NCBI GenBank assembly: GCA_000442015.1
Contig: KE560848.1
Coordinates: 1 to 64,000, forward strand
Reading direction: 5' to 3'
DNA: 64,000 nt
From: Rozella allomycis CSF55
Lineage: Eukaryota
The translations under genes were made by a program, and so were the position numbers. The notes beneath the pieces are model-generated. The model ran no database searches. It saw nothing but the letters and a program-made list of their open reading frames with translations, and was not told the origin of the DNA. This document shows positions 2,386 through 52,958 of this stretch, piece after piece (position 1 is the first letter of the stretch; each line of letters begins with the position of its first letter).

Positions 2386-3699
2386 TTACATACACTGCGT
2401 CTCCTTTAAAGACAGATAATACATGGAATATTTATCCATTCCAGTCACATCGGCATTGATTTTTACAAATGAAGGGAGCCAAGAATCATCGTTTGTCTTT
2501 CTTTTGTCAACAAACCCCTCCATTAGTACAAGGCCAGGGGCTGGTGAATGAAACTTGTCAATGTGAAAATAATGATTTTCCCAAATGAATACCCTTCTTG
2601 TTTTGATAATGCTGCTGCGTGAAGGGTCCCTCTGAGAATATAACGCCTTTTCTACTCACATATAGAGATTTACCTCATATTCTCGCGGGGTTAATGTTCT
2701 CCTTACTTCAATTGTTTGCCCATCCTTTTGATTCTTTCTTATAGTGAGTGTATAAGTGTAATAGTCACCAATTCCTCTTTTTCTTATCCTTGCTTGACTT
2801 CCATCAGTCGAAATTAGGTAATTGTGCTCAACGTGAAAATCTCTAAAACCTATTTCGCTATTCCAACTAGTTGGAAATCCCTTTAATAAGAACTTTCGCT
2901 TTCTTAAAAACTTTCCTCCCCTGCGATCTTCAAGTCCAAGTCTTAAAAGAACTGTTTCGACAACCTTTTTCAATTTTTGATCAAAAGGCGTAGAATTATC
3001 AATTACATGCAACGAAGGATGTCCATTCCAAGCTTCTAAAATTCTTTGGTCCAGGATTTTAGCCAATTCCATATTTTCTGATCTTACGCTGTTAGTTTCA
3101 TTCCCATAAAATTTTTCCGCGCCATTGGCAGCAGACTCCTATAATTCTAGTAAATAAATGAAAATACCATGTGTATTACAAAATCATACCTTTCATCCCT
3201 CAATTTCGCTTCAGCCATACTCATTTGTTGTAAGATATGAATCCAGTCCACTCGATCAACATCTATGAAAAAACATTTTACATTTAAACTACATGCGGAT
3301 GGATCCATCGTCCCTCTATCACATATTACAACCACATTTTGACCTCCAGATGCTTGACTTGCAGCTAGCTCCATGATTGAGTCTTCAATTGTAATCATAA
3401 CCTTCAATAAGTTCATTTGAAAGCTAATCTCTAAAAATAAGACAAAGTAGTAACTTACGTTGATCCTTAGTTAAGGTTGAAAATTCAACTCCAGAGCTTA
3501 AAAGAATTGTTGATGTTTCAGAGATTTTATATACTTTCCATCCCATGTTCTCCAGCATATCAATATTTCAAAGATCTTTGATAATTACCTGATAAAACTG
3601 TTTGAGCAGTAGATTTTCCGCCACACGGTCCTTTACAATGAAATCAATGAATTAATTACCTCCCGTTAAGGCTAATTTAATGAACCGGCCTTGGACCAT
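2386..3699 (-). CDS. P-loop NTPase (AAA_28-like) plus CYTH-like domain protein, TTD14-like
   Basis: The spliced N-terminus KLALTGGPCGGKST is a Walker A motif. Also present: ICDRGTMD, RYDFVIHMV, AWNGHP and the CYTH-type YL...RIRKRG...YTLT. Confidence 0.75.
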
Positions 3700-3785
3700 T
3701 CAGATTCAATAATTTTGGAAATTTCCAATAAAGTTTGCAAAAAGAGAAATTTTTTCACCCCCTGTAAAGTGTCCGTAACTCACAC

Positions 3786-4586
3786 ATGACTGCTTCCAAC
3801 CTTCCATCTATTTTAAACCCAACTGAAGAAGACCTTCAAATGCTTTTAGCTGCCAAGTGCCATCTTGGAAACAAGAACGCCGAAGTTCCAATGCTTCCAT
3901 ACATTTTCAAGCGCCGTCCTGATGGAATTAACATTTTGAACATTGCCAAGACTTGGGAAAAAATTGTCTTTGCTGCTCGTGTCATCGCCTCCATTGAAAA
4001 TCCAGCTGATATTGTTGTTATTTCAGCCCGTCCTTATGGTCAACGTGCTGCTCTCAAATTTGCAAAGTTCGTTGGTGCTGAAGCTGTTGCTGGACGTTTT
4101 ACTCCAGGTACTTTCACCAACTACATCACCCGTGCTTTTAAGGAACCACGTTTGATCATTTGCACTGACCCACGTACTGATCATCAACCAATCAAAGAAG
4201 CTTCTTATGTTAACATCCCAACCATTGCTCTTTGCGACGCTGATTCTCCTCTTCGTTATGTTGATGTTGCTATTCCAACCAACAACAAGAGCAAGCACTC
4301 TATCGGTTTGGTCTACTATTTGTTGGCTCGTGAAGTTTTACGTCTTCGTGGAACTATCAGCCGCTCTGAACCATGGACTGAAAAAGTTGATCTCTTCTTC
4401 TACCGTGACCCAGAAGAGGTTGCTGAAGAAGCCAAGGAAGAAGTTGCTGAAATTGTTGAAGCCGATCAATCATCTGAAGTCGTTGCTGATACTTGGGCTG
4501 AAGGTGCCACTGAATTTGCTGCTGCTGAAAACTGGGGTGATGCCGCTGCCGTTGAAGAAGAAGCTGTCGGTGCTTGGGGTCAATAA
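3786..4586 (+). CDS. RPS0: 40S ribosomal protein uS2 (SA/S0)
   Basis: Intronless; [40 protein letters not shown]. Confidence 0.98.
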
Positions 4587-4812
4587 AGTATTAGTCATTC
4601 ATTCCTTCTAAACATTTTTTTGTTTTATTTGCCATAATTTCCTTATGGCTGTAATGAATCAATGATGAATTCTGAGCAAGCGAAATTGATGGATCTTGTT
4701 TAATGTTTTTGTATAAGGGTGGGTTTTCGTAATCCTGGATTTTGAGTTTTAACCCTGAAATTCACGCCGAATGGTAACTTAAAGATACAAATCAAATGAA
4801 ATATTAGCTTTG

Positions 4813-5253
4813 TTATTTATTGCTTCTAATGTTCCTATATCGGTCTATAATTCCCTGGCAGGTTGGCATACCACATCTACATTGAAATGTCCACCTGGGG
4901 TCCCAGTAATCTTCTGATGAGCCATGATTATACAAAAACGTCAGCTCCTCATCTTTCAAAACTTTTTTGATAGTGACAATTTCTAGGCGTTCATTAATTT
5001 CACAATTTGGCTCACAGCTATGGTTCGCATATCGAGCATTTTTTAATGGTATTAACCATTTCCATAAGCCGTCACTTGCTAGAAAGTTCAAAACATATTG
5101 AACTTCATCTTCTGGCACCTCGCAATAGTTCTCAAATATGATATCATCTTTTGGCTTGAAACGCTCTGCGACTTCATTTATTTCCAAATCTTTCGAGGCA
5201 CGTAAAGAAAAACCGTTGCTTGATTGATGAGCGTAAGAAGGATATGTTGACAT
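4813..5253 (-). CDS. Small SET plus post-SET domain protein
   Basis: ARYANHSCEPN, EELTFLY and the post-SET motif CRCGMPTCQG. Confidence 0.85.
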   Translation of the reverse strand: MSTYPSYAHQSSNGFSLRASKDLEINEVAERFKPKDDIIFENYCEVPEDEVQYVLNFLASDGLWKWLIPLKNARYANHSCEPNCEINERLEIVTIKKVLKDEELTFLYNHGSSEDYWDPRWTFQCRCGMPTCQGIIDRYRNIRSNK

Positions 5254-5328
5254 TTCACAAGTATCACAACTGAAAAGTAATTAAAATGGTGGCTAATTCG
5301 CCATACTTTATTGCAAAAGATGAATAAA

Positions 5329-6063
5329 CTAACAAGAGCATTGTGATATTGAAGAATCCTGCCTTCGTGTAATATTGATGCTATTTTGTGTTTGTTCTTC
5401 AACCTGTTTTTTACTAAATGATTCTAGAGGAAGTTTTTTGGCTGTTTATCGAACATTTTATTTTTTACCAATTTCCTTAAAGAGATGATTTACGTTTTCA
5501 TTTTCTTTCGCCGATGTTTCTAAAAATAGAAGCCCTTTCTCAGATGAATAGGATGATGCCACCTTGATTAAAAATATTCGCACTATATACTTCCGATTCT
5601 ACCTGCCTTGAGTCGTGCAAGTCACATTTATTTCCGGCTAAGGCAACAACGATCTCATTAGTGGCCTGTCTTTGTAATTCCTTCACCCAAGATTTCGCTC
5701 TATCAAAAGAATCCTATTAGCTTCATGAAAAAACATTACAGAATTTGTGATATCGTAAACAACAATTGCCGCCTGCGCATTTCTATAATACATTGGCGCC
5801 AAACTATGAAATCTTTCTTGTCCAGCCGTGTCCCAAATTTCAAATTTTATTATTTTGTCTTGAACCTTGCATTTTTGAGTTAAAAAAGCAGCGCCAATCT
5901 TTGTAATCATCAGGAAATACATTACAGTGGGTTCCTTATTTTCTTGATAATCATTGTTGACAAATCTGAGTACCAATGAAGATTTACCAACAGCTGCTTC
6001 GCCAAGGAGAACTAGCTTGATTTGAATTGGCTTGAGCATTGATGGAGAAGATATCATTTCCAT
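5329..6063 (-). CDS. Rab5/Vps21-family GTPase
   Basis: [27 protein letters not shown] and ETSAK; the spliced C-terminus ends in the CSC prenylation motif (stop at 5329-5331). Confidence 0.92.
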
Positions 6064-6511
6064 CGAAGCTTATTGTATCACGTGGCTGAATTTGTTTGTT
6101 TTTAGTTTTCAGCCCATCAATAGCATTTAACATTATATTAAAGTTACAAGTTGATAAATGTTAAAAATGAAGGCAAAATATCTTACATAAAAAATCAATT
6201 CAATTAGTCATTTTGGGACCAATAAGTGGCAGATACAATTTTATCTATAAATACTAATTAACTATGTCATTAAATAAGAACTAGAACTTCTCCAAGATAA
6301 CCCATGGCGCGAATTGTATAAGATGATAAATAAAAACGACCAATTTCATGATTGGTTTCCCGAATCCCCGATAAGGATGCTCAATACCGCATGCATTAAA
6401 CATCTATTACTTTTTCATTCCGTTTTTTCACTCGCTACTATTTATTTCCGATACCTCTTTTCTGGCCACAAAATGCCTTGGTAACAATAGCATTAACAAC
6501 AAAAAATCTGA

Positions 6512-7683
<1,172 letters not shown>

Positions 7684-7741
7684 AAATAAATGTATAAAAA
7701 TTCAATTTTGTGTAAAATTATATATTTATTATTTAACAAGT

Positions 7742-10700
7742 TTATATGAGCAAGTTGGTGAGTTTTTTCTTTCTACGAGAGTTTACAAACACAGCAGTAG
7801 CCGCGACACAAGAAGTACCACCTACTATACCAGCTACAATCCCCGCAACAGGAATATCTTCGTCATCTGAATCGTTTGAATCGTCTGGAGCGTCTTTCTC
7901 CATGTCTTCTTCTACTTTGTCTGTGGAATACATATCTAGTAATTCTTGTACTTGACTTTTGATTGCAACGAGCGAGTTATTTTCACTTACTACCTTTTCC
8001 ATTGACTTTTTAACTTTTTGGTATTTTTTCGACAACGTTGAATTTGCGAGCGCCAAATCTTTCTTTTCTTTTTGGCAAGAAATTTTATCATTTTTAAGTT
8101 TTGTGTTTAAATTTGCAATTTCATTTAATGAATTTTGGAGGGTAACAAGGTCAGATTCACATTTGAGCAATGAACCTTTATCTTTTGAATAGAGGTCCTT
8201 TGTAGATTTTAATTGATTTGATAATTGGTCCAAATTCTTTGAGAGAGTTTGATTTTCAGTTGATAAATTAGAATTATCTTTCTTTAGTTGATCTAATTGA
8301 GAATCTACGTCTCTATTTTGAGCATTCAATTTCTGAATTTTCTGATTTAAATTTGAAATTTCGGATTTAAGCTTTGCAATTTTGGGGTCATTTTTATTAG
8401 AATGAAGTTTTGTTAATAGCGAGTCTACTTTTCTAGAGCAAATATTGTTCTCGTTTGTTAAAGATTGGATTTCAGAATTTGAAGATTCAACTTCATTATT
8501 TAAAGACTGAATTTCAGATTTTAGGGATTCAATTTGACTGTTTAGCGATTCTATTTGATCATTTAATGATTCAACTTGACTATTTAGAGATATGTTTTTA
8601 TTCTTTGATGAGTCTAAAGCTAACGAAATTTCAGAAAATTTTGTTTCAAGGGTGACTAATTCGCTTTCTTTCTTTTCTAGGTCAATTTTGAGCAATTCAT
8701 TTTGTTTATTTGCATTTGAAAGATTAGAATACTCTTGTTTTAAAGATTTTAGTAATTCATCTTTTTTATGTAGAGAAAGTTCTAGTTCTTGAATTTTGGA
8801 TAATTGTTTGCTCAAGATTGAATTCTTATCATTCAAGCTTGAATCTCTTTCATTGACAAGAGCCTCTAATTGAGTAGCCAGCGAATCTCTTTCCTTTACA
8901 ATAGAATCTCTTTCCTTTACAATAGAATCTCTTTCTTTTGAGGTTTCTTGTAACACTAAATCTTTATCTTTCACTAAGGAATCTCTTTCTCTTATAGCTT
9001 TTTTCAAAGCTTCATCTTTTTCTTTCAACAAATTATTCATTGTGATTTCTATTTGATTACTTTCATCAGATAGCTTTTCATTTTCATCAGACAACTTGTC
9101 ATTTTCATCAGATAACTCTTTTATTTCTTTAAATAGTCCCTCTATGTCATTAGATAATTTATTAATTTTATTAGATAATTCATCAATTTTATTAAGATAT
9201 TCTTTTTCTTTATCTTTGTAGTTTGATTCATTTTGTTTAACAAGTTCATCTTTAACTTTGACAAGGGTTCGATACAATTCAATGCGCTCTGATAAAGTTA
9301 TCTTTAACGAATTATAATCATCTACTCCAGCTTGGATTTGTTTCAGTAATTCTATTTCTCTTTCTTCAAATTCTCTATTCCTTTCATTATAAAACTCTGA
9401 TAAAGAAACGATTTCAGATTGTAAAGTTGATAATTCATTTTTATCGAGTTTCATTTCTTCAACATTATTTTTATTCTCCATTACTCTTAAATTAATTTTC
9501 TCCATATTTTCTTTGTCTTTCAACATTTGATTTTCTATTAACTTATCTCGATCTTCTATAATTCCCAACAATTCTACTTTGAGGTCCTCCAATTCATTAT
9601 TTCTATTAATCATATCTATAACCACAGCTTGACTCTGTTTTATGAACCCTTCACTATCTACTATAACTTTTCTATATTCTTCTTCCCTTAATTCAAACTC
9701 TTTTCCTTTTTGTAAAAGTTGATCATTCAATTTATTTATTTCTTTTTCTTTATATTCAAGTTCAATTTTTAGTTTATCAATCAACGTTGATTCCAAATTT
9801 CCTAAACTCTAATTATGAAAAATCAGAAATATATTTACTTTGATTAAATCTTCATTCTGTCTTAGCATTTTGCAATTTACACTTTCATTTGACTGATTGT
9901 CACCACTTTCATTCTCACTTTCACCTTCAACTCCAACTACACATTGTTTTCCTTCATTTAATGTTTTAATCAAATTGTTTGTCATTTGAATCAAATGATT
10001 ATTTAATTCGCGATTTTTAGCAACAATCGATTCATTTTCAGCAATAGCTTTGTTTCTTTCAGTAGTCAACAATTCATTCAACTCTTTTACATTCACAAGC
10101 TCATCAATTGCTTTTTCTTTTTCACTGCTAATCTTTTCAAATTCATCTTTAACTCTTTCTATTTCTTTCTTGATTTCATCTCTTTCTCTTGCTATTTCCT
10201 CTCTGTTGTTTGTTATTGTCTCTATTTCATCTCTTAATGTTTCATTTTCTTCAGCATTTCTTTTTATTTTTGCCATAACATTTAAAAGGTGTTCCTCTAT
10301 TTGTTTAATTTCTTCTACTTCCTTTTCTCTTTCAAGCAAAATTAAATCTTTTTGTTTTATTATTGAATCTCTCTCTTTTATAATTGAATCCCTTTCTTCA
10401 ATAGCTTTCTCTCTCTCTAAAGACATTTGTTCAATAGCTTTATCACTCTCTAAACACATTTCTTTTTGAACAAATTTCATTTCTTCTTCAATAGACTTCT
10501 TTTCTCTTTGGAGTCCCTCAATTTCTCTCACAAACTTTAATTCAACTTCAGTCTTCTTTTTCAATACTTGTGTTATTAATTCTTTATACTCTTTTCTCTG
10601 TGAATCAACTTCAATCAGCTCCCCAATCAATTTCTCCTTTTCACTTGCGTATTGTTCTTCCATTTCTTCATACTTTTCATTCAAAAATTCTGCATGTTCT

Positions 10701-13700
10701 ATCAAAGCTTCGTAATCTTCGTATTTATTAAACCTTGCTAGCTGCTCTTGCAATGCCACAACCTGCCCCGTCAATAACTCTCTTTGATATTCCAAGTCTG
10801 CTATCATTTCAGCAAATTCTTCATCACTCAAATGTCTTTTATCTTCTTCTATTTTTCTCAATTTGAAATAATCTTCTTTCAAAGTTCTTAACTCTTTTTT
10901 AAGTTCGTTAATATTCTCATCCTTCATTTCAACAGTTTGCTCAAATTTCTTCAGTTTTTGTTTAAGATGTTCAATGGCCATCTTGTCTCCATACTTTCCA
11001 GAATAATAATCTTCAGATTCTTTCTTTATTTTATCAATCTTCTCCTCCAATTTTCGAATTCTGAGTTCATATCCATCAACAACATTGTGTATAATGTCTT
11101 TATAGTATTCTTCTAAATCAGCTTCTTCTTTTTTAACATCAGCAAGGTCATGATTCAAATCTTCAATATGCTTCACAAAACTCTCCCTTTGATTTTCCCC
11201 AATCGCATTCCCTTCAATAATCGGTTCGTCTATGTCCATGTAAAACTCAACTTCTACATCTTTCTTTTCATCTTTTTTTTCGTCTTTTTTTCTCAAGTTC
11301 TTGGCTTCATTCAATTCTGTTTTACAACTTTGCAATTTTTCATCAGTTGCAATAATTGTTGCCTGAGCCGACGCAAAATCTTTTTCCAACTTTTTAATTC
11401 TCGTGTTCGCTTTGCTCAACTCTTCCCGAGTGTCTTGCAGTTGCTTTCTAGTCTCCTGCCATGTAAGCTCAATATCGTTTCGCCTACACTTTATAGTGTT
11501 TAGTTTATACTCGACAATAGCTACTTCCAATTCTCGTTCCTTTATTTCATCCTGCAATTGTTTCTTTTCTTTATCGTTGGTGTCACCAACCTCTTTAAGC
11601 TTAGATTGAAGATTTTCCATATTTTGTTTTGCGTTTTCAAATTTAATATTCAATGACCTATGTTCCAACTCTAGATCCAAATTTTCCTTCTTTTGAGAGA
11701 GTTTATAGTCGTTTAGGATCTCTTCAAATTCTTTTCTCTGATCTTCCAACGCCTTTTTTACTTTATCATTCAAATCTTGCGTTTCAGATTCATTTCCACT
11801 CGCATTCTCTTTACTTGCTTTATTAATCTGCTTCTTTAATTCTGCTATTTGCCTTTCGTTTTCATCTTTCAGTCTTTCCGATTTATCGAAATATTTTTTA
11901 AAATCGGCCATCATTTCGATTGGATCCATCGAAGTATTCTTTATTTCTTCATCTTTTTCGGCTATTTCATTCAACAAATTATTCATCATCTCAATAATCA
12001 TATCAGCATCTGCGTTCCATTTTGCATTTGTTTCATCAACTTCATCCGTTTCATCAGGTACAGGACATTCAGCTTTTGTAGTTATGGTTAAATCCGCATT
12101 TTTCATTCTTGGTGAGCTACTCATCAACTTTTCTCTAGGCAAACTAGCGGGTGAGCCATTAATCTTATATGATTTAGCTTTGCGATGTTCTAATTTTCAC
12201 GTTTTTATTTATGTTACCATTTTCTATAAATCTTAGCCTTTCCGTAGTGCGCGCATCAACTTTCTTGGCATGGTCATAAAATGACTCTGGGTTGTTGTTA
12301 TCGATTGCAGGAATCTCATCTTCCACAAATATAAATTGCTCCAACCATTCAGGTAAAGGCGCTGAAACAATCTTCAAAGATGACCGTAACATGGCTATTG
12401 AACGCTGCTCATTTTTGATTTTCTTTAAGAGGTGTCTCTCTTCATCCGTTAGTTCTTCACTTTGAATATATTGCAACTTGCCACGAACCAAATGCAATGA
12501 ATATTTACTCTCTTCAACTTTCATTCTTTTGTGGGATGCTATTTTTACAAGAATGGTCGAAAGGCCCTCGAATGTTTTTTTAATACTATCATTTTCAAGT
12601 TTGAGCAGATTAACATCAAGTTTCGCTTTACCTAAATTACGTAAAGCTTTTTTATATTTCAATTCCCAACTCACATGTGTACTTTTTTGTTTTAAACCCT
12701 CTTGATCATCCTTTTGTGGGATCTGTGAATCAATAATATTTTTAACATCTTCCTCTGTCTTAATTGTCGGATCTATCGCCAACTTGCGCAGTTTCGCTAC
12801 AACCTCTCTGTTGGCATCCAATTCTTTATTAAGGTCTGTTATCTTGTTTTTTAACAAATTTATTGCCTCTTCATGAATTTGATTGATCTCTTTAATATCA
12901 TCATCATGATGTCTCTTCATTTCCTCGATTTGTTTTTCTATTCTTTCATTCGCATCCTTTCCATTGACCCAGCCGTTAAACATACTACCAACAACACCTA
13001 AAAGCTGCTGTCTTGCAGATTCAAGTTCCTGAATTTGTAACTTTTCAACACTATTGTTATCTACCAAAGCATCTATAGTCTGATCCTTTTCTTTCAGTTG
13101 ACCTTTTAATTTTTGAATCTCGTGCTTGGCATCTTTGTAAATTTCCATCTCGGCTTCAAGACTATCAACATTACTTTTCAGAGCCTGTTTTTCATCCTCC
13201 AATAATGAGTTTTTTTCTTTTAGAGCGTCTATTTCTCGTTGCTTCTGTTTGACCAAATCTTTCAATTGAAAATATTCCACTTGAATATCTAAAGTTAAGC
13301 TATTTTGTTTATCCTTTTGTTCCTTTTGTTCAAAGCTTTCAATTTGAGCCGATAATTGTTGTACAAGGGCGTCCTTGCGGTCCAAATTATAAACCGCAGT
13401 GTCAAGACGGGATTTTAAATTTTGGTTTTCTTCTTGTAAGTCTCGTATTCTAGCAAACTGTGACTGTTCGTCAAAATAATAAGATTGATAGCTCACATCT
13501 GACATGTCATCATGATCATAGCCTATATTTCTTTTAAGAATAAATTACGAGAACAGCTTCCCACTGAAGTAGCGTCATCATACCTTCTACGATCAACCGT
13601 AGGAGAGTCGGGATGTCTGGCACTAAGGGCGGAAACAGATGCTCTTCTCCTGACGAGAGGATTTGGAGCCAGACCCAAAGAATGACGTCGTGGATATAGG

Positions 13701-13771
13701 CCACTTTGGTTAGTTCCAAGTACTAGATATGATAATATCAGCAGGAAAAAATTTTCACCAATTTTTTTCAT
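7742..13771 (-). CDS. Giant (about 1,980 aa) coiled-coil protein with a hydrophobic N-terminus and a C-terminal TM
   Basis: Four ORFs (13523-13798, 12174-13505, 9809-12142, 7742-9796) join in frame through 26-, 28- and 30-nt GT-AG introns. The body is heptad-rich in E/K/L. The start is 13771 or 13798. Confidence 0.75.
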
Positions 13772-14317
13772 AAAAATACTGATACACTCAGCCACCATGA
13801 GTTGTTTATTGTAATTTAACCTAATCGAGTAATTAAGGTTATGTAGTTATGTGGCCATTATATATTAAAATACATCATTGTTGCATTAAAAAATATGAAA
13901 ATTTTATACTTGGCAAATATTTTATACTGGAGGAATGGACGTAGATTCTTTGGCTTTCCTTAAAAGTATCGCGCATGCTGCATGCAGTGTCCAATCTGCA
14001 AAATATTGAAACTAATGTGGTATATCACAGGCTGAGATTAAAAATTAGTTTCACATTAGCAAAAAGGAATGCATTCATGATTCTGAGAAGACTGGCATAA
14101 ACACTTTAAATAAAATTAGTTTTTGTTAAAAAATATGTTTCTTGTAAACCTTATAAACAACAAGGATAAATTTGACGATTCAATTCGCGTTTGTTTTTTC
14201 GCATAACTCAGACATATATTGAAGGCCCATTAGGTTATCAAGATTCTAATTTACACTTTTACCCATATTTGTTTAAGGTTTGCTTTGTTTTGAAATTATA
14301 AAATCTCACGAATCAAA

Positions 14318-16238
14318 ATGAGGATTCATCACCGTTTGCATCACATATCAGCGAATTCGAATTCATTTTTTCAAATATTATTTGGTATAGCTCAGAATAA
14401 GCGGTTCATATTTTTATTTACATTGATCGCATTCTTTCTTACGACGCAAACTATTTTCGAAACTGACAGTGGTAATAATACTTGGGCTGCATATTGTTAG
14501 CTATTCAAAGAAACCAAAAAACTAAACATTCTCAGGTTCATGCATCAAGTGATGACATAGTTCATGATTTTGACGAGACATTACCAGTGGAAATCATGAA
14601 TGGCAATGAAGAAATAAATTTCAGTGCTAAAAGACGCAATAACACGATTAAACCCTCATCTTCCAAATCTACGTTTCCAAAGACCTTCACAGCATTCCAG
14701 CCTCAGGTCGTAAGAAAAGACTCAAAATTCAAAACAGATGAAAAAGCTCTTGATTTTATTAAATCGGTAATACTGAAATTAAAAGTTGAGGAGATGATCA
14801 AACATGCTTGGTCTGGTTATTCCAGTTTTGCTTTAGGATCGGATGAGTTAAGACCAATATCTAAAACATCCCGTAATTGGATGACAAAATCTGGGTTTGC
14901 GGCAACTTTAATTGATTCGTTGGATACATTGTGGATAGCCGATATGAAGACAGAATTTTATGATGCCTTGGAGGAAGTGAAAAAGATCAACTTTGACCAA
15001 GTATTTAGATGAGAAAAATGTGATATAGAATGACAGTACATCTGTATTTGAAACGTGCATTCGTATTTTAGGAGGGCTACTCTCAGCGTACGATTTGTCC
15101 GGAGAAAAGGTGCTAATTGAAAAGGCAATTGAGATAGCGGATAGATTATTGCCGGCTTTTGATTCCCCAAGTGGGATACCAAGTGGTTTAATTAATTTGC
15201 ATACGTATAAATCAATAAACTATTTAATTAGTGGGGAAACAGGGAAGCAACCATGGTTAGGTGATGCCGTCTCGCTTGCAGAGATTGGTTCCCTGCAATT
15301 AGAATTTACATTTCTATCTGAAATAACGGGTATTCAAAAATACAAAGAAAAATCGCAACAAGTATTCTTCACATTGTCCAAAATGAAAACTAAAGTGCCT
15401 GGCCTATATCCAATGAGGATACTTCCTGATACGTTTGAGCAACCTGCAGATGAGTTCTCATTAGGAGGTTTATCTGATAGTTTCTATGAATATCTTTTGA
15501 AGCTGTGGATTTTGGAGGATAAAAAGCCTACTCTCTTTAGAAAAATGTTTGACGATGCGATGGATGCGTCGACCAAAGTGTTACTTGGAACAAATAAAAT
15601 GGGATACCGCTACTTTGGAACTTATCGAGGTATTTTGATACCGGAAATGGAGCACTTGGTAATATTTAATTGTTAATAGAACTTTAGACATGCTTTTCTG
15701 GAGGGATGATTGCTTTAGGAGTAATGACAAGAACTTCATCGTCCCAACAAAAGTATTTTGAACTAGCTTCTGAAATTACTGAGACTTGCTATCAAATGTA
15801 CCACCGGCAAGTTTCCGGACTATCACCAGAAAAAGTGAGCATGAACAATTTTGAGGCGCTTGTGCCATATTTTATACAGCGGCCAGAAACGGTTGAAAGT
15901 ATATTCTATATGTGGAGATTCACTCACAATCCAAAATATCGAGAGTGGGGCCTTGAAATTGCCAAAGTAAGTTCTATTTATTCATTCTATAGAATATTGA
16001 AATGCATTGTAAGGTTAAACATGGTTACGCCGGTGTAGAAAATGTCACCGCTAAACATCTTCAATTACGTGACAATCAAGAGAGTTTTTTTCTTGCGGAA
16101 ACCTTAAAATACTTGTATTTATTATTTAGTGATGATGATAAAATTTCTCTTGATCAATACGTTTTTAATACGGAAGGGCATCCATTTTCAATTCATTCTC
16201 CAAGGAGATTTTTTAATGACTTTTCAAAAGACAATTGA
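14318..16238 (+). CDS. Class I alpha-1,2-mannosidase (GH47), type II membrane protein
   Basis: [67 protein letters not shown]. Confidence 0.96.
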
Positions 16239-16285
16239 AATAAAAAATGGGAGTGTAAAATAATATTTATTTCAAATTAATCTAT

Positions 16286-17388
16286 TTATAGTTCTCCACT
16301 GCTAACAATCGTTATTCTTTTTGTTGGGACTCCTTTTTCAGTGGAGCATTGCTCAATTTTGTTCAAAATCTCTTCTCCTTGAATTATCTCGCCGAAAACT
16401 GTATGTTTTCCATCAAGCCTTTATTAATGTCAATTATGTAGTACCAAGGTGTTGCCTTGAATGTAATAAAGAATTGGGAACTATTAGTGTTTGGGCCAGC
16501 GTTTGCCATAGAAAGAAGCCCTAAAAATTTCAACCACTGAATATTACCTCTTCCCGTATGTTGGAGGATAAAATTTTCATCTGGAAATTTATCGCCATAT
16601 ATTGATTTTCCACCTGTCCCGTCTTCGTTCGTAAAATCACCGCCTTGTGCCATCTTGATTAATAATAAGTAATTTGATTACAAATCCTGAAATACAACGG
16701 TGAAAAATACATCCTTTATAACCAAAACCTTTTTCGTGTGTACATAATGCCCTGAAATTTTCCGCGGTTCTGGGAGCAACATCTGCCCTTAATTGAAAAA
16801 CAATTCTTCCAGCCATATGAGTACCAATTTGAATATCAAAGTAAACTCTCGGCAAAAGTTTGCGGTCCTTCGCTTTCGGTACACTCTTTTCCGTTAAAGT
16901 CTGTATGTTATCTTCTTCATCCATAAAGTTATCATATTCTTGACCTTTCCCATTTGCATAATGCTCCAAATACTCCGCATCTTGCCAAACTACTTATCTC
17001 ATTGCGATTGTAGTTACCAGGTCTCGCAGTTCCGTCTCGCATAGCCATAGGTTTAGCCTGACTGCATTTAATAACTCTTCCGTATAACTCTGATAGATGC
17101 ATATTATCTATGGCATCTTTAGCATCCTCGACATTTTCATATTCCACAAACCCAAATCCACGATGAAGTTCCGTCATTTTTCCTTCTTAAGGTTTAAATA
17201 AACTATGTTTTTACCTGAATCATAAACTCTGGGTATAACTATTTCTGCTATTTCACCAAAGGGGATAAATGCCGTTTGTAAAACAGCTTCATTTACATCT
17301 TGTGCCAAACCACCTTGTTTTGAGGAAAAATTATTTATATACCAACGTATACTGAGCTCTTTCTTTGAGTAACTGGTAAAACGAACAT
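16286..17388 (-). CDS. PPIE: Cyclophilin E (RRM plus PPIase)
   Basis: RRM motifs VYVGGL and HRGFGFVEY are followed by [18 protein letters not shown] and [17 protein letters not shown]. Confidence 0.95.
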
Positions 17389-17424
17389 CGAGACTTCAGC
17401 CACTGAGGTGAAAGATTATTTTAT

Positions 17425-18474
17425 TTAATGAATCACGGAGTTCTTTTGATTTCCAGCATCGGTCACGGAACTCATTTTCTTTAGAGTAGATTGCTCATGC
17501 TTCATGATATTCCCACTGCCGATGATAGCATGGCCGTTCACAAGTGGGTTGCTATGGAAACCAGAAATATTCTTCTTGCTTCTACTATGAGCTGAAGGAA
17601 ATCTATTGTCGATGTACATGGAATATAATGGAAGAAACAAGTCTACAGGCACTGCTATTAATGAAGATACGTTAAGAATGGTTAGCCAGGGATCGTTAGA
17701 CTGGTCCACTCCAGCTACACCAGGAATTATTGTAATAAATACAGCAACTATGTTTTGCAAAACGCACATGAGAGCTGATATTCTCAAAATTATCAATGTA
17801 GTAGAAACCTTTTGGCTATGATCTTCTTTACTCCTGTGTGTGTAGTAGTCGTAACCTTTGATGATCAATACCAAAAAGCAAAATATAGATGTCCAGCCAA
17901 AAGAATATATTATGACTTCCAGCAAGATAGGATCCGTATTTGATATAAACATATAGTTCGTTCTCTTTAGAATTTGATTCTGGGACGCTAATGCTACTGA
18001 AGCTGTTATTAAGCAACTCGCAACGATTGCAATATTGACCATTGTATGTTTTCTCGCATCATTAATTATGTTTTTCATGGGGAATAGGGTAGTGGCACAA
18101 CTGATATCCATGTAAAGTACAGCTGAAACAAGTGTGAATAAATGGTGTGCATTTTTACTGTAGCATTCGATAAATTTAATCATAAGCAAATACCATACAT
18201 GATAATCTGAAAGAGGAACAAGAAGTGAATACCCATTTAAAATTTGTTGACAAAAGCAATAAATCAACTCGTGTACATAGATCCATTGAAGAACACGATA
18301 CGTAGGTGTGCCATACATTTTTGAGAACCTTAATGCTAACATAGCCATCATCACTAGTCCAATCAAGACTGTATACATCAAATTCATCGCTATTTCATTT
18401 AACCTGGGCTCAATTATATTGTCTGCCATTAACAGTATCGTCTCGGAAATTATTTGAATAAATATAGCAGTCAC
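17425..18474 (-). CDS. Multi-pass (about 7 TM) membrane protein, GPCR-like topology; true start unresolved
   Basis: 349-aa ORF with about seven hydrophobic segments and an S/K-rich tail. Confidence 0.6.
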   Translation of the reverse strand: MTAIFIQIISETILLMADNIIEPRLNEIAMNLMYTVLIGLVMMAMLALRFSKMYGTPTYRVLQWIYVHELIYCFCQQILNGYSLLVPLSDYHVWYLLMIKFIECYSKNAHHLFTLVSAVLYMDISCATTLFPMKNIINDARKHTMVNIAIVASCLITASVALASQNQILKRTNYMFISNTDPILLEVIIYSFGWTSIFCFLVLIIKGYDYYTHRSKEDHSQKVSTTLIILRISALMCVLQNIVAVFITIIPGVAGVDQSNDPWLTILNVSSLIAVPVDLFLPLYSMYIDNRFPSAHSRSKKNISGFHSNPLVNGHAIIGSGNIMKHEQSTLKKMSSVTDAGNQKNSVIH

Positions 18475-18686
18475 CAGGACTATATGTGCTCAATAATGTC
18501 TGATTACTAATAATGTCAATATAGCCTGAAAGAAATTACTTTAACCGTGTAATTTCATCACTCCTTATTTTAGCGGTGGCAATGTTCATGCATGAAGCGA
18601 TTTACTTGGTAACGTCACAATCACGTGTTTATGAATCATTTTTAATGGCAAAAATATTCCTTTCTGTTTCATTATAATAATAGAAT

Positions 18687-19398
18687 TTATTTTAATAAAG
18701 TTTTTCTAGCATAGCGATAGCCGCCCCAGAGTAAGGCGAGAGGTGATGTTGACATTAAAGCGTCCAGAATTAATTGCCTTTTTGACTTGTAAAAATTCCT
18801 GACAGAGACCTCAATTTGATGTAAGAATTGAACTATTTTAATGTTCAAACGTACTTGTGATTCATACATAAAACTAAAATTGGATTGAGTGATACATGTT
18901 ACGAGAATGAATGGTTATCATCGAATCTGTGCTTATTTAAGTGGCTTTCGGGCTTTAAAATGCATTTCTTATTTTTGGTCGCCCTCATAATATGTTTTAA
19001 AGGAATCTGTTGCACAATGCCGCTGTCAATTAGGTAAAGTGACGGCAATTCTAAAACTCTTAACTTCCTCATTAAAGTTAAAGACTCTTTGGCTTTCGCT
19101 ATTCCCAGTTTAATTTCGTCATCAAAGCATTCCTGGCTTGATATTAATATCTCATTCCAATGGTCGTTCCTATCAGTCCAATTAAAGGTACTCGTTTCAG
19201 AGAGAATAAAATATTTTACACCAGTACTAAATATGGGCCTTGGTCGTTTATCAACCGCATGTTTGTATCGTTTAATTCATCAATGTATACACGTTCGCTT
19301 GCTTGAAAAGTCGTATGGGGTCGAGTTGGTAATGAAACATAGTATAATAATGACGAAAATACGGCCAAAACAGTAGTGCTAAAAGTAGTAGATACCAT
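18687..19398 (-). CDS. Hypothetical membrane protein (hydrophobic N- and C-termini)
   Basis: ORFs 19216-19398 and 18687-18869 are linked through an open middle exon by two 29-nt GT-AG introns. Confidence 0.55.
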
Positions 19399-19544
19399 AC
19401 GCCAAATTAAACAGCGTGGTTGTCAAGTAAACGTGTTCTATGATGATATTAAGAGTCATATATTTGCCATAATTAGCGTTTTAAGAAATAAATTATCGTC
19501 AAAAAAGTCAAATACGTTATTGAAATTTCAAACGATTGTTTTTG

Positions 19545-21650
19545 ATGAAGGAACCTGTGTCTTTAGAAGAGCTATTGAAGAAGAAAGAAGAAGAAGAACG
19601 TTTGAACGCTAAAGTAAATATTTTATACCCACTTGATAGCCTAAATATATGTCTAAAGAAGAGAGAATGAAAAGAGCACTAGAAGAGAGGAGGAGAGACG
19701 CTGAGAAGAAAAGAAATAATTTAGAAGCGTTTAAAACACAAAATGAACAAAGCAAGCTACCAGAGCCATCACCTACTTATGTTAAAAACACAATACCAGA
19801 GAAGGAGTTGCAAGCCATAAAAGCAAAGTATTTGGGGCTGGAAACTAAAAACAAACGAAGGAGATATTCAGATAGAAGATTTGTGTTTGAATGGGCGGAA
19901 CACGAGGATACATCTGTTGAATCAAATCCATTGTATGCAACGAGAAAAGATTACACGTCGTTTGGCAGGGGCCATACCGGAGGAATTGATCCCAATGAGT
20001 CAAGTGCAAATAAGGATGAATTTTACGAAAAATTAATGGATGAAAGAAGGACCGATGTAGAAAAAGAGAGAGTCAAAGAACTGGACGACATTAAAAAGAT
20101 GAAAGAAAAGAAGAGATTACGATTTGATGATCGTCATTGGACAGAAAAGCCTTTGGAAGAAATGAATTCACGAGATTGGCGTATTTTAAAGGAAGATTAT
20201 AGTATATCAACCAAAGGTGGTTCAATTTCTAATCCGCTAAGAAACTGGGATGAAGCGGAATTGAATTATAAAATAAAAAGAAAAATTTATGACTTGGGTT
20301 ATGAAGAGCCAACTCCTGTGCAAAGGCAATCGATACCGATAATTTTGAGTACCCGGGATATGATAGGGATAGCAGAAACTGGGTCTGGTAAAACTTTGGC
20401 CTTTTTGCTACCGATGATCGAGTCTATTATTAATATAAGAAAAGAAGACAACGATTCTTTTAATAATGGGCCATTTGCGTTGGTACTTGCACCAACTAGA
20501 GAATTGGCGCTTCAGATAGAGCAAGAAGCCAAAATGTTTACTGAAGCATTAAATTTAAAAACTGTAGCAGTGGTTGGTGGGCATATAATGGCAGAACAAT
20601 CGTACAATTTACGTGGAGGCGTTGATTTGTTAATTGCTACCCCTGGGCGTTTAAAAGATCTATTGGAGAGTCACGTTGTTGTTTTAAATCATTGTTATTT
20701 TGTTGTGATGGATGAAGTAACAAATTATACGAAATTAAATAGGCTGATAGAATGATTGACATGGGGTTTGAAATTGATGTAAATTTCATTCTGGACAACC
20801 TTCCCGCCTCCACCCAAAAGCCTGAAGACAAAGCAGAGGATTTAAAATTTTTAAAAAATAAACGATTTAGACAAACAACAATGTTTTCTGCTACGATGCC
20901 ACCTTCGGTTGAGAGAATGGCCAAAAAGTAATTGATCACTTATTGAAATAAAAGATATTTAAAGAAGCCTGCTGTTGTAACGATTGGAATCGCTGGAAAG
21001 GCAGTTGACAGAATTGAACAGAAAGTTGAAATGATGAAAGAAGATCGCAAATGGTATTTTTCATTATTTCTAGTTATACAAGGGATAGACTTGTTCGCAT
21101 TCTTAATGGAGGGTTTGAACCTCCAATTATTGTTTTTGTGAGACAAAAAAGGACTGTTGATTATTTGACGAGGCAATTAGAAAAACTGAATGTAATTGTT
21201 TGTGTGAAATTTAATTAGTTCAAAGTGGTTGGTTTGCATGGAGGTAAAACGCAAGATCAAAGAGAAAAAAGTTTGGATTTACTACGCAAAGGTCAAAAGA
21301 ACATTCTTATTGCCACTGATGTGGCTTCCAGAGGGATTGACATTAAAGATGTATCCCTGGTTATTAATTATGACATGAGCAAAACAATTGAAGGTAATTT
21401 CTATTCGTTACTTTAATTTGATTACACCCATAGAATTGGTCGAACTGGGCGTGCCGGAAAAGAAGGAAAAGCGATTACTTTTCTCACAAATGATGATCAA
21501 GAAACGTTTTATGATCTCAAATTAATGCTACAAGCTTCTCCTATTAGTCAGGTGCCTTCCGAGTTGAAGAATCATGAGGCTGCACGTTATAGGCCAGGAA
21601 TAACGGTAATCAAAAAGAAAAGTGAAGAAACAATTTTCAAAGATGAATAA
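19545..21650 (+). CDS. PRP28: Pre-mRNA splicing DEAD-box helicase Prp28/DDX23
   Basis: [58 protein letters not shown] across an intron, and [12 protein letters not shown]. Confidence 0.95.
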
Positions 21651-21654
21651 ATAT

Positions 21655-22386
21655 TTATTCTTTCATCGATTTAGCTGGGATTCTCGAGAGAATGGTTTTT
21701 CTTAACCCTGTAGGTCTTGTTTTTCCTTTTGTGTAACCATCCTTTGATACACAATAATTATTAACAAAACTCACGACGTCACTTTCAATTCCTTCTTTAT
21801 TACATGACAAACTTCCAAATTGATAGGCAAATTTATCTGGGTGCCTTATTGCAATACAGTTTGCTTGGTCACACATCGAAAGACATCTAAAAGGTATCAA
21901 CTCGACATCAGATTCATTATTACTTTTAATAATTAATTACCACTAGTTTTCGATGACAATATATATGAAGGTAATTCTGCATCAATATTCCCACTACTGT
22001 TGTCTCCTGGACTCATTTTCACCTCGTTAATCTTCCATTCATCGCTTTTTACAAAGTTTCTAACAATACGGCGATACAATATTTCTCCTGTTGAACATGG
22101 CTTATCCTCAACTAGATCTTCAATATCAAGGATATCTTCATTCGCACACATCGGTATTTTTTCTCGTTTCACACAAGCTAACTTGTCCTTTTCCCCTTCG
22201 TTGCATTTGGAACAAACATACAAAATATTCCGTTTTCTTTTACTCTTCTTTCTTCCAACTCTGTCGTATTTGAAAATCTGTGTAAAAATATACCTACATG
22301 ATTACAAGCCAACTTGATATAACTACAACCAAAATACTAACTAGGATATAGATATTTTGCCCAATAAGATTAAACAAGACGCCCAT
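21655..22386 (-). CDS. Hypothetical Cys-containing protein with an N-terminal TM
   Basis: A hydrophobic first exon from the ATG at 22386 joins ORF 21933-22223 by a 28-nt intron. It then joins ORF 21655-21900 in frame only via a 26-nt GT-TG intron. Confidence 0.5.
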
Positions 22387-22925
22387 GCAAATTTTCAAAA
22401 TGTTTTTTCTACCTTCCTCATGCCCTAAACTAGAACTCTCTGACAACAATAACACTATAAATGTTTTAGATGGTCATGGCAAACTATGTGAAAATAATGT
22501 CATATCTTCAAAAGGAAGAAAAGTGATTCGAGCCAATCAAGCGTTTTATTTGTACTTCAAGACACTCGTGTGTATTCAGAACAGCAAAGGACGAGAAATA
22601 TTTTCCATATTTTTATTGAATTTGGTCAATGGCGATGTTATTTGGCAGTTAAACCTCGTCGACTACGGATACAGAGTGTTCCCTGGAGTCAATGTCAATT
22701 CTTATGTCTATCGTTCTTCAGATATTAAATTTCAAGAAAATTCCATGCAAAATATTAATCTTGTCAAGTAATCATAATCAATTTTATTATTGAAGTCCTC
22801 GCACGATAGTTTTGGATCGCATTGAAGATCTTGGCACACTGGCTATATCTAGTTCAGGTCAAACTACATTTTTGAGCTTAAGGAGGATCAAAATTAACAA
22901 AGAAATGTCACTGACTAAAAATTAA
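22385..22925 (+). CDS. Hypothetical protein
   Basis: ORF 22385-22771 is extended by a 28-nt GT-AG intron to a stop at 22925. Confidence 0.5.
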
Positions 22926-23358
22926 ATCTTTGTGAGATAGTCAAACATAAAATACGCTATTGCCTCAGATAAATCCACAATCATCATAAACTTTTCAATA
23001 GTGACACTATTTTGTGTACGATGTTTTCTAATCCTAATCATTGACTTTTAAAATAATAGTTTATACGATCGCCAGTACTCGTGAAAGGATGCACACAAAC
23101 ACAGTTCTTCGACTAAAGCTTTGGTTTCATAATATCATTTCATTTTTTGTTAGGATATCACAATGAATTTATTCTGCTGCACAGAGCACTTCAGGATGGA
23201 GTGAACTCAATTGGATTGAGAATCTTAGCGATTTTTAGGTTAAAAAACAAATTACAATACATTAAATAGAATGAAATAAAATTGGTAATAATATTGATAT
23301 CTAATATTGAAACAATTTTGTCCAACCAAAATATTCCGAATCGACGATTTAATTCCCG

Positions 23359-33618: not shown

Positions 33619-33643
33619 ATTTGCACTTTGTTCTTACATTTAT

Positions 33644-46424: not shown

Positions 46425-47555
46425 TTATTTTCCCTTTTTGAGAAACGGCGTTATTTCTTCTCTTGAAAAGATTCTTGTCTTCTCTTTAAGCATTTTAACA
46501 ATCTCAGCACAGGAAGGTTCTTCTTCTTTTGGTCCAATGTGAACCCAATAACTGGCTAATTTCTCATAATTCTTTGTCATTAACAACCACCAAATATAAT
46601 CATAACTAGTTTCCTTGAACACTATCGCCTTGCTTTCATAATACGTTTGCCTATTCTGAATGAGATTGGCGGGATGTTCAAGATAATGTCTCAATGGATG
46701 CAAATGATGAGACGCATGATACCCATCATTAAAACAGTCTCTATTATACACACAGTGCACTAATGTTATAGAATTCTGCAATCCACCACCAAGTGGGTTA
46801 GTTCTTTCAAGAAATGAATGCTGAACCCAATTCCCTTGCATCATTCCAAATCTAACAATATTAAACGGCAGAATAAAAGACATAAAAGTAGCCATAAAAT
46901 CAACATTCAAGGCCAAATGGATCATTGCCAAATAACAGCTGATTTCCATTGCCATCATTCTCATCGGTTCCTTCACCCTTCCTCGCTTCACAAAGAACAT
47001 TGGTAGCTCAAACCATGCAAGAAAGTAGAAACGAAAAAAATAACACACAAAATGAAAGAAATTGTCTCTTTGGTAAAACAATGTGCATGAAAGATCTTCA
47101 GGTCCATTATCTGTAACATGATGCATTTTCAAATGATGCCAATAGTACGAATACGGCGTTTGTCCAAAGAAAGGTGCTAATAAAACAGGTATCAAATGGT
47201 TCATAAATCCAATCTCTTTTTTAAAAAGTGCAGAATGTGAAGATACATGCAGAGCAAGAACATAGCGACGGGTCCAAACAGCTAACAATATTGAATGCAA
47301 AATCAGGTGAATGAAACTTACCTTGTATGCATACATTATTGCGGATGAAATCGGTGCAAGTAGCCCTACTAGCGCTACTGTTACCACTTCAACATCTAGT
47401 GGGTGATTAATAAACTTGCGAACGAACTCTTCGTACTTGTTCTGAGGCGGTGGTATCTGCTTTTCTTTCTGGGTATTGATTTGCCAATTTTCATCGATTG
47501 CTTCTAGTATATTGTCATCTGTCACTTCTAAAATGTCCACTGATCGAGGAGGCAT
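46425..47555 (-). CDS. Membrane fatty-acid desaturase-superfamily protein
   Basis: Histidine boxes HVSSH, HHLKMHH, QH and HASHH; intronless. Confidence 0.88.
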   Translation of the reverse strand: MPPRSVDILEVTDDNILEAIDENWQINTQKEKQIPPPQNKYEEFVRKFINHPLDVEVVTVALVGLLAPISSAIMYAYKVSFIHLILHSILLAVWTRRYVLALHVSSHSALFKKEIGFMNHLIPVLLAPFFGQTPYSYYWHHLKMHHVTDNGPEDLSCTLFYQRDNFFHFVCYFFRFYFLAWFELPMFFVKRGRVKEPMRMMAMEISCYLAMIHLALNVDFMATFMSFILPFNIVRFGMMQGNWVQHSFLERTNPLGGGLQNSITLVHCVYNRDCFNDGYHASHHLHPLRHYLEHPANLIQNRQTYYESKAIVFKETSYDYIWWLLMTKNYEKLASYWVHIGPKEEEPSCAEIVKMLKEKTRIFSREEITPFLKKGK

Positions 47556-47631
47556 GGCGGGTGGTGGCTTTGCAAATCACACTTTTGTAAACCATTACAA
47601 ACTACAATGAAAAATTTATTAATTTGCAAAT

Positions 47632-50073: not shown

Positions 50074-50452
50074 TGACAGCGAAATATCTCCGATACTATT
50101 GAAATCACATAGATTAAAATAATGAAAAGTATTTTATTTAGTCATTTTCAGTAAAACTAAAGAATCATCTAATGTTAGAAAAGTTCTTCAAAAGAAATAG
50201 TGAAAATAAAAGTTTCAGGGAAGTCTTCCGTGCATCGTGTTCGGCCAAGAACACTCAAACAAGAGGTGTCAGAATATTTGGCAAAAAGCACTCATCATTT
50301 AAAAAGAAGTGTTCAAAGTTGGATCGCTTACCGATTGGAATTTACAACAAGGGTTGAAAAAAAATTGCTGAAATTTATACCTAACATCAGCCACAGTAGT
50401 TAATGAAGACTTGAAAATGTACCACTTTAATGTCCATTAATCTGAATATAAT

Positions 50453-52958
50453 TTATTCATCCAAATCTTCTTGTTCTTGCAAGCGATCATGTATATCATG
50501 CGTTGATCTGTATCGACTCCAGGTTGTCGAGTGAATGTCATTTCCTGTTTTTTGTTGTTCATAGTCATTTAATGGCCTTATCATAAAAGGAACATGAGGT
50601 GATTTTTGACCCCTTGAATAGACCAAGTCGCGCTCATTGCACAGAGTTTGATATCTATATAGCACTCTAATGTTTGGTAGGTTGGTCTTCTTAATATCTA
50701 TAAAACTATTTTTAAAACATTACCATTTCCGCGGGGACCTTCGAGGTGAAAATTGTGACCAAGCCATCTCTTTTTCATGCTTGCCTCAAATCCAGACTGA
50801 AGGACGCTGTTTCTGGAAATCTCACTCATATCAGCAGAAGATAATTTCCAAATCTTGGGTTGTAAATACAGTTTTGGATTACTTGGGCAGCTACAGAATA
50901 TTCTTCAATTAATGGTTCCTTTGTGAAATGAAATTGAAGAGGATCATCAGTAGATAGAGAAACATTTAAACCCCTTTGAAAGAATTGAGGAAACGGATTT
51001 CTTTCATACGTCAAGAAAAGAGCATTGTTGCTTAATGGTGACATTGCTATTCCAATTTGTTTTAAATAGAACAAGTATTGCAATACTGGAACTTTCCTTA
51101 ACAAAATTCCATGAGCGATAGAATGTGAAGTCAAGAAACTGCATGATAAATGATCTGTGTCCCCAGCTTCTCCGCAATGTGGCCTTAAAGTGAAGGTATC
51201 AAATATTTGAGATGAATTAAAATATTACTTAATCCTCTTGCTTTTCTTAATTGATTCAATGAGCAGATGTTAGCATACATGTAATAAATGTAATAAGAAT
51301 ATGGGGGATTCATTTTTGACGTCCACATTTTTGGTAGTGGAAATCTAGTTTATGAATCTCATACTAATAATACTTTTTATGAATTCTCCTTTCTGGTTTT
51401 GATTCATCATCGACAGAGTCGAAACCAACCACCCTTTTAAGGAAAATAGAGAGCTTTGGATTGGAAGCGGGATTCATGGAAACTTCAAAAAGGGGTTCAA
51501 ACACATCTTTCATAATCAGTTAATGCACTTTACTTGATATGAATTCTTCAAAGTTTGACAAAACTTGGCTTGATTTGTAAACACTAAATAGCCTGGGAAC
51601 CTGTACAAGCCACCTGACGTTATCGGAAACAATTTGGTTGTCACAAATCCATGCCGCCAATTTTGTCCATTCATCTTTTGATTTGCCATAAATCGATATG
51701 CGATATTCAGCCATTTGGTATTTGCTAGCCTCCAAGTCTGAAATCACCTCCTTTGTTAATTCTGCTAAATATCTCCCCTCAATATGATTATCAGTCTTTA
51801 AGAATATTTCTCTCAATCTACTTTCACCTACAGGATTATACTTTAAATTAAAATTATCGAATCTATGAAATGAATCTTTATGCGCCTATTATTTAAGCAG
51901 TAATCAAGTCTTACATGCATATCCAATGTATCTATACTTAAATCATACGCTGTCAAGTTCAAACTCTCAAATACTTGTTCCAACGTCAAATACTTGTTGT
52001 CTCTATAAATCACAATGTCCTTTCTTCATTAATTTCTTTTACTTACTTTTGGAAAAGATTTAATTTTTGATTTTATAAATCTCAATAAATGCTTCAAATT
52101 CATGCAAGACGAATGATGTACGTGAGTGTCAACTTTTCTCACATTATAGAAATCTCTATGGGGAACTCTTTTTTGCGCCCTCATTTCTTTATATTCATTT
52201 AACATTAAATAAAGATTATATTGAGATTCTAAAAACCTTAACCTTCTAAATGAAAATGATTTAGCAGGACCATCGGAAATAACGGACAGTATGAATTCAT
52301 TATCTTGATAATATTCCTTAATGGTTGGCACTTCAAACACCTGCTTCTTCTTCATGTGATCATAAATTCTAAACACTCCATCTTCATCCATTTTGTACAT
52401 CCAGTTATGTTCAAGCGATATATGTGGTAACATATCACATTTATTAATATCATACGACGCCAAACAATATGATTTCCCTCTATTCCTGGTTTGATCTTCA
52501 GCAAGGGGTGGTTCGATCTCCCAATCATCCCTGTCCTTGGGATTATCAAACTGGCTGCTCAATTTTAAATACTTATCCCTCAAATCCATGCATTTTATTA
52601 AACGGTCATATATATCTTTCACCTCTTCTGTCACTTCAAGCGTCTCTATAATTCACAAATCTATTTCGACTTACCTAATATGCTATTGTCGTCCAAGTCC
52701 AAATTTTCCATGCTCAATTCAAAATCATTTTCACCGGCCTGCATTTTTGGTGTTTGGTTCAAAAGCATTCTTATTCCTTCCTACCTCTTTGAAAATATGT
52801 TCAATTACATTTCCAATTTGTCTATCCATATGAGCCGAAAAGAATGGGGTCTGATCAGGTACCAAAAGGTCAGGCTCGCTCAAATTTATAGATGAACTGC
52901 TCTTAAATACATCATTGTCTTGATGTGCAGAAATCAATTTAGTGACTCGGTCTGTCAT
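50453..52958 (-). CDS. AMD1: AMP deaminase
   Basis: [31 protein letters not shown] and [11 protein letters not shown]. Confidence 0.97.

Follow-up and report, generated by a model that had tools for sequence, protein, structure and literature searches.

Must an intron of the major spliceosome end in AG? The terminal AG of these introns is among the most constant signals of eukaryotic genes. The question is raised by a stretch of 64,000 nucleotides (nt) from Rozella allomycis CSF55 (contig KE560848.1, positions 1 to 64,000; hereafter, the window), in which six introns of five conserved genes start with GT and appear to end with TG. The window is 35% G+C, and the standard genetic code yields long open frames in it; the large exon of its Prp28 gene has 100% identity to an R. 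allomycis CSF55 protein. An initial annotation, made from the letters alone, had proposed five of these introns, and the coordinates, strands and lengths that it gave are all correct in the sequence; the sixth, in a mutase gene, was absent from it. The six introns, and an ordinary intron that lies among them, are as follows.

3561–3588, minus strand: GT..TG intron of 28 nt in a NadR/TTD14-like P-loop gene, between ..TVLS and DMLENMGWKV
21394–21420, plus strand: GT..TG intron of 27 nt in the Prp28/DDX23 gene, just 5' of helicase motif VI
28512–28538, plus strand: GT..TG intron of 27 nt (kexin-1) in a kexin/furin-like protease gene, upstream of the catalytic-serine exon
28597–28623, plus strand: ordinary GT..AG intron of 27 nt, between the two kexin TG introns, ending in TTAGTAG
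28667–28692, plus strand: GT..TG intron of 26 nt (kexin-2) in the kexin gene, 5' of PDLTWRD
51200–51228, minus strand: GT..TG intron of 29 nt in the AMP deaminase (AMPD) gene, 5' of a stretch of 12 residues preceded by (N)
60191–60217, plus strand: GT..TG intron of 27 nt, the sixth, in the methylmalonyl-CoA mutase gene, with VEDMK on its 5' side and ILFDGIPL on its 3' side

Retention of the introns first proposed would bring an in-frame TAA into the Prp28 and kexin-1 readings and a frameshift at the introns of 28, 26 and 29 nt, as had been claimed. Homologues and solved structures demand the removal of exactly these bases at all five, kexin-1 being the least secure. The further claim that TG is the only 3' end that preserves the protein also stood: where an AG lies nearby, it comes too early, is out of frame or costs a motif, and elsewhere there is none. 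No in-frame GT-AG solution keeps the conserved residues at the TG introns. Three of the six contain no AG at all, and the nearest downstream AGs are 11–30 nt away.

The evidence differs from gene to gene. In Prp28, human DDX23 and another Prp28 leave an exact gap of nine residues between ..TIE and the ten-residue stretch that follows. In a spliced alignment that is blind to splice motifs, GT-TG was the best solution, while the best GT-AG solution was 35 units per homologue worse (eight fungal homologues). In the AMP deaminase gene, the last full codon of the upstream exon corresponds to residue 513 of Arabidopsis AMPD, the split codon to residue 514 and the start of the downstream exon to 515; the numbering in human AMPD2 is likewise continuous (478/479/480). 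The AMP deaminase intron has no G inside, and its boundaries cannot be moved by even one base; a parse restricted to AG needs an intron of 59 nt (51170–51228), 30 nt longer, and by our reading loses ten conserved codons. In the TTD14-like gene, the spliced N-terminus has the same spacing from the P-loop to PE.AT as 43 of 45 aligned homologues, the other two differing by +1 and −1; these 45 were drawn from 56 P-loop-bearing proteins among 149 matches. The mutase intron appears as an exact nine-residue insert relative to human MUT, between VEDTK and ILFDGIPL. Within it, the AG that would give an intron of 25 nt, 2 nt short of the actual one, is out of frame; shifting the intron by one base leaves the protein unchanged but loses the GT donor (AG..GT). 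Neither the TTD14-like junction nor the mutase junction has an in-frame GT-AG candidate within ±15 nt.

The two kexin introns are unequally supported. At kexin-2, all five homologues that cover the junction align without a gap, and the residue numbers of furin and Kex2 agree exactly on both sides, provided that the middle intron is 28597–28623. The intron has no AG; the in-frame AG at 44 nt would cost the protein PDLTWR. At kexin-1, no gap is needed across AGI|.TTDL in the alignment to the best homologue (P0274, 49% identity), and an AG at 22 nt does not keep the frame. This junction lies in a loop of variable length and its support comes from that one close homologue, so that kexin-1 is the weakest-supported of the five introns first claimed. 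Against distant homologues the motif-blind alignment over-calls pseudo-introns (in the kexin flanks and the TTD14 C-terminus), and results from the conserved cores were used; in these alignments, all six homology-fixed introns are compatible with GT..TG. The bases directly after each TG encode in-frame residues that match the homologues one for one: helicase motif VI, PDLTWRD, the stretch before a 14-residue segment, and the helix after the P-loop. Such sequence is conserved and in frame, and is therefore not expected of an intron.

The TG introns were compared with the ordinary introns of the window. Our own gene finder, applied to the whole window, gave 97 well-supported GT-AG introns of 25–32 nt, mostly 26–30 nt. 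The TG introns, at 26–29 nt, share this size class, as the initial annotation had stated. The GT-AG donor is GTA(A/T), with A in 68% and T in 22% at position 4; position 3 is A in 100% of the 97, since the set was selected for GTA. All six TG introns also start with GTAA or GTAT (GTAATT twice, GTAATA, GTAAAT and GTATGG among them), and they sit between GT-AG introns within the same genes. No clear branch motif was seen in either the GT-AG or the GT-TG introns of the window set that was inspected. At acceptor position −3, the 97 GT-AG introns have T in 60%, A in 32% (AAG), C in 5% and G in 3%; the pyrimidine preference at this position is weak in R. allomycis, and the YAG rule is already loosened. 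Thus the six introns have the GT donor, the size class and the host genes of U2-type introns, and lack the 3' AG. Against 96 well-supported AG introns in the window, they amount to about 6%; in the four genes that were re-examined by homology, there were 22 AG and 5 TG introns.

All six of the homology-fixed ends that are not AG are TG. Because TG accounts for only 25 of 384 dinucleotides (~6.5%) at comparable intron positions, this is far beyond chance. When the gene finder was allowed one extra acceptor dinucleotide, TG gave the largest gain of the 15 tried, with a total score of 3136.6, compared with 3127.0 for AT, 3119.7 or less for the others and 3089.1 for AG only. The margin of TG over AT is modest because frame-equivalent ends compete. 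Taken together, these results suggest, with a probability of roughly three in four, that the six introns are U2-type spliceosomal introns with UG in place of AG at their 3' splice site, the joining at UG being deduced from genomic DNA and protein homology. The variant of U2-type splicing that they represent is probably real and undescribed. We lean, by a little, towards a broader proposal, namely that R. allomycis uses UG routinely and constitutively in several percent of its introns, i.e., in hundreds genome-wide, by a rule under which the first AG, or failing that UG, is taken beyond ~25 nt from the 5' splice site.

If the T of these TG ends were a sequencing error, independent DNA should show it. 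DNA runs were compared over 3401–23400, which includes the TTD14-like and Prp28 sites. Run X5 (2018) covered all 30 bins and had two changed places in 20 kb, one C>T and one T>C, with no T>A or A>T. The TTD14-like intron is spanned by an X5 contig (3401–3665) and an X6 contig (3401–6130), both with 0 differences. At the Prp28 intron, all three DNA runs have depth at 21412, and there is no change at 21419 among the changes listed. Hence the letters at 3562 and 21419, two of the −2 positions that the initial annotation had named, are unchanged in independent DNA, and an assembly error at these two sites is unlikely. X2 and X6, but not X5, also carry another haplotype or strain variant with ~2% divergence (e.g., at 21066–21446), and a second public assembly has a variant TTD14-like allele on a 16-kb contig. 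A divergent X6 contig (21000–21534) has a change at 21412 and none at 21419 among those listed, which is only a hint that the TG is common to both haplotypes.

How, then, is the 3' end chosen? Among 96 GT-AG introns, 28 internal AGs that would have given introns of 20–24 nt were skipped, and between 25 nt and the actual 3' end there were only three. In nearly every case, the AG in use is the first beyond a threshold of ~25–26 nt. The six TG introns follow the same pattern: their internal AGs end at 9–25 nt, AG and TG are both absent from 26 nt up to the end of each intron, and the next downstream AG would give an intron of 39–57 nt, outside the size class. At the ordinary kexin intron 28597–28623, homology favours the later of the two AGs in the tandem acceptor TTAGTAG, for a length of 27 nt rather than 24 nt, in agreement with the length threshold. 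The TGs that AG introns pass over (2 of 78, with ~3 expected by a rough count) are uninformative as to depletion. The initial annotation had proposed that this lineage measures a fixed distance from the 5' splice site. A threshold at ~25 nt is indeed seen, but length alone does not place the site, since all six non-AG ends are TG. The proposal is thus partly supported: distance sets a window rather than the site, with G kept at −1 and only −2 relaxed.

Several explanations compete with a UG splice site. If splicing used AG only, as in the public annotation, the proteins would lack conserved segments, or the mRNAs would be frameshifted and the genes decaying. In-frame GT-AG options can be found for Prp28 (27 nt, shifted by 13 nt), kexin-1 (39 nt), kexin-2 (44 nt), AMP deaminase (59 nt) and the mutase (57 nt). 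However, they would remove the H-R of motif VI, PDLTWR, the stretch before HCGEAG and a ten-residue stretch of the mutase, all of which are encoded in frame right after the TG with residue-for-residue matches to homologues. Most of these options, at 39–59 nt, exceed the main size class, the TTD14-like junction has no in-frame GT-AG nearby, and the remainder of each gene is intact; we therefore regard this explanation as unlikely. A pure ruler, by which the distance from the 5' splice site fixes the 3' splice site whatever its dinucleotide, is the strict version of what the initial annotation proposed. It would account for the narrow length class, for the AGs skipped at would-be lengths of 20–24 nt and for the AG that is passed over 2 nt short of the mutase intron's end. 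It is quite improbable given that every non-AG end is TG against a background of ~6.5%, that the TG introns range from 26 to 29 nt and that the other non-AG ends of the gene finder that were examined (17407, 33707, 54514, 46389) are explained otherwise.

The T could also be an artefact, or the alleles null, with AG in the actual genome or on the second haplotype. The ~2% divergent haplotype in X2, X6 and the second public assembly leaves room for this, and three of the five claimed sites are outside the DNA comparison. Yet X5 and X6 agree with the reference where they were compared. All six changes are identical, A to T at −2, whereas damage from errors or null alleles should reach donors, position −1 and coding sequence too; no such change, stop or frameshift was found in the genes examined. 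We consider an artefact very improbable. Hardly any weight remains for a process other than the major spliceosome, i.e., ciliate-like DNA elimination, the minor U12 class or ribosome skipping. Lengths of 26–29 nt do recall the shortest eliminated sequences of Paramecium, and U12 introns tolerate varied 3' ends. But the donors GTAATT, GTAAAT and GTATGG differ from the U12 consensus, and donor and size match those of the GT-AG neighbours in the same genes. Elimination of the ciliate type, like an alternative code, was rejected: the segments are present in all DNA runs compared, the code is standard, the organism is a fungal relative, and excision from TA to TA in Prp28 would take 28 nt and break the frame.

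Other points weigh against UG splice sites themselves. The GT-AG reference set came from our own gene finder, which carries a length prior, with a homology re-check of 22 introns. Positions 28537, 28691, 51201 and 60216 lie outside the interval of the DNA comparison, as do the second haplotype's bases at most TG sites. For kexin-1, there is an in-frame GT-AG option of 39 nt, with a weak GTTACA donor, that deletes four residues including AGI. The sole RNA run labelled with the species, X10, contained no Rozella transcripts, only short matches of ~80–88% to conserved genes. In S. cerevisiae, according to the available text of PMC12262433, a UUG acceptor is poorly used, and the Prp8 mutation Q1594A gives no rescue. 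In human, TG acceptors are known from 36 genes, or ~0.02% of sites, and in the portion of that report available to us they are always alternative and never the sole site (Szafranski et al. 2007, PMC2374985).

The human and Rozella acceptors are alike in having a GT donor, a U2-type context and TG in place of AG, and TG is the favoured non-AG dinucleotide in the available human account as well. The difference is that the human TG acceptors described there are in tandem with a nearby AG, whereas in Rozella about 6 per 100 introns end in TG, TG is the sole end that preserves the protein, and half of the TG introns are free of AG. The Rozella TG introns do not match a TG-AG tandem, in which the TG has a functional AG of the intron beside it.

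A UG splice site would most likely be reached by the following process. The first catalytic step would proceed with no need for an AG. Exon joining would then reach only a narrow zone that starts ~25–26 nt from the 5' splice site. Within this zone an AG would be taken if present, and otherwise a UG, so that G−1 is kept and A−2 relaxed. According to PMC12262433, which cites cryo-EM structures of 2017, non-Watson-Crick pairs link the acceptor G−1 to the intron's first G, and A−2 to the branch adenosine. Because A−2 pairs with the branch adenosine, U−2 is predicted to be poorly tolerated. The same source describes a yeast acceptor that is read late: scanning runs 5' to 3' beyond the branch site and is leaky, in keeping with the pattern of a threshold plus first site in Rozella. 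In yeast, the UUG reporter is unused even in Prp8 Q1594A (PMC12262433), whereas the Rozella introns described here have TG ends, and 32% of the AG introns have A at −3. Since yeast rejects UUG even with a relaxed Prp8 while Rozella appears to tolerate U−2, this tolerance and the frequent A−3 may point to a changed exon-ligation pocket. The initial annotation had named U2AF1, Prp8, Slu7 and Prp18 as factors that may be altered.

Ultra-short introns occur elsewhere, with ~25 nt in Paramecium, 15–16 nt in Stentor and 18–21 nt in the nucleomorphs of chlorarachniophytes. Like the introns of Rozella, they form a very narrow length class, have weak internal signals, and cause stops or frameshifts upon retention. 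Unlike the six introns described here, the tiny introns of Paramecium, Stentor and chlorarachniophyte nucleomorphs are not known to depart from GT-AG; moreover, Rozella is a fungal relative with the standard code. U12 introns tolerate unusual terminal dinucleotides and choose the acceptor by its distance from the branch site. They are recognized by RTATCCTT at the 5' end and by a branch motif close to the 3' end; both motifs are absent from all six TG introns.

The literature that was searched has no description of GT-TG introns or UG acceptors in Rozella, nor of TG use throughout a lineage. This agrees with the statement of the initial annotation that the phenomenon was undescribed, save for the human alternative TG acceptors (PMC2374985). 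The passages on Rozella that were consulted in four papers (PMC8476143, PMC6349667, PMC4736243 and PMC13393502) do not mention non-canonical introns, and the acknowledgements of the last indicate that RNA sequencing data exist for R. allomycis. A metagenome search for relatives by means of Prp28 gave 117 pattern matches, of which 0 were confirmed.

The public protein sets (EPZ and RKP accessions) force GT-AG introns, and conserved motifs are deleted in all four genes checked. Their gene models are wrong at five of the six TG introns, the AMP deaminase model being outside this check. The Prp28 model (19545–21650) reads through a 14-residue sequence in which the H-R of motif VI is lost. In the kexin model (27437–29581), the donor at 28512 is joined to an AG beyond 28740, and the catalytic-serine exon is missing. 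The TTD14-like models (2389–3699), of both alleles, start at a methionine just after the TG intron and have no P-loop. The mutase model (P0282, 59680–64000) lacks a segment of ten residues and is fused to its TCP-1 chaperonin neighbour, giving a protein of 1233 residues. Several of the 55–60-nt "introns" in the AG-only parse are work-arounds for TG introns.

Thus, pipelines that force GT-AG distort Rozella proteins, from which a catalytic-serine exon, a P-loop, motif VI residues and a mutase segment are lost. Rozella is the standard outgroup for gene loss toward Microsporidia, and faulty models may be misread as degeneration; if UG splice sites are real, then a key sister lineage of Microsporidia has a public proteome with systematic errors at genes with TG introns. 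R. allomycis would also represent the first lineage with a non-AG acceptor as a regular and sole site of the major spliceosome, and would imply that the active site for exon ligation reads position −2 differently. With UG as the sole acceptor in about one intron in 20, it would be a natural experiment on how the exon-ligation substrate is read, and would suggest that extreme intron shortening shifts work from sequence to distance.

Further TG introns were sought among the candidates of the gene finder, and one is a probable seventh.

21915–21940, minus strand: probable GT..TG intron of 26 nt in a DUF1636-family gene

It joins open frames of 120 and 85 codons, and its downstream exon matches positions 41–117 of the DUF1636 profile. 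Its AG at 18 nt does not keep the frame. The sequence around the junction is variable, and homology allows a length of 26 nt, or 26 ± 3n.

The other candidates were not retained. Of the TG candidates, 59641–59667 is upstream of the mutase presequence and outside homology coverage, 33717–33741 lies within an intact RING-finger frame, and 4763–4788 is past the natural stop of a SET gene. Two were judged false without a homology check, 47018–47044 as part of a long open frame and 7939–7965 as lying opposite a large gene on the other strand. Those at 46389 and 54514 are probable gene ends, 2325–2393 is probably beyond an annotated gene end, and 62960–62997 is in fact part of a 59-nt GT-AG intron. 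The TG candidates at 37576, 38058 and 39724 were not counted among the TG introns. Among candidates with neither AG nor TG, 17407–17436 has a 34-nt GT-AG solution, the end at 33707 is inside the intact RING frame, and 705–730 was left out of the homology-fixed set.

Scans of the window for Rfam families and tRNAs gave no match. In X2 and X6, an intergenic stretch at ~13920–14125 has 10–20 times the depth of its neighbours and numerous joints and loose ends; it looks like a dispersed repeat, and the same scans found no tRNA or Rfam family in it. At 16444–16515, inside the gene 16286–18078 (minus strand), depth in X6 is very high, and RNA contigs of X10 match at ~80% identity, so this is probably a conserved or repeated segment common to other organisms. 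The 59-nt GT-AG intron of the TCP-1 chaperonin gene (62960–63018, plus strand) resembles two tiny introns placed head to tail: a first half of 30 nt ends in AG and is followed directly by a second of 29 nt that starts with GTAATA. It is possibly a tandem or recursively spliced intron.

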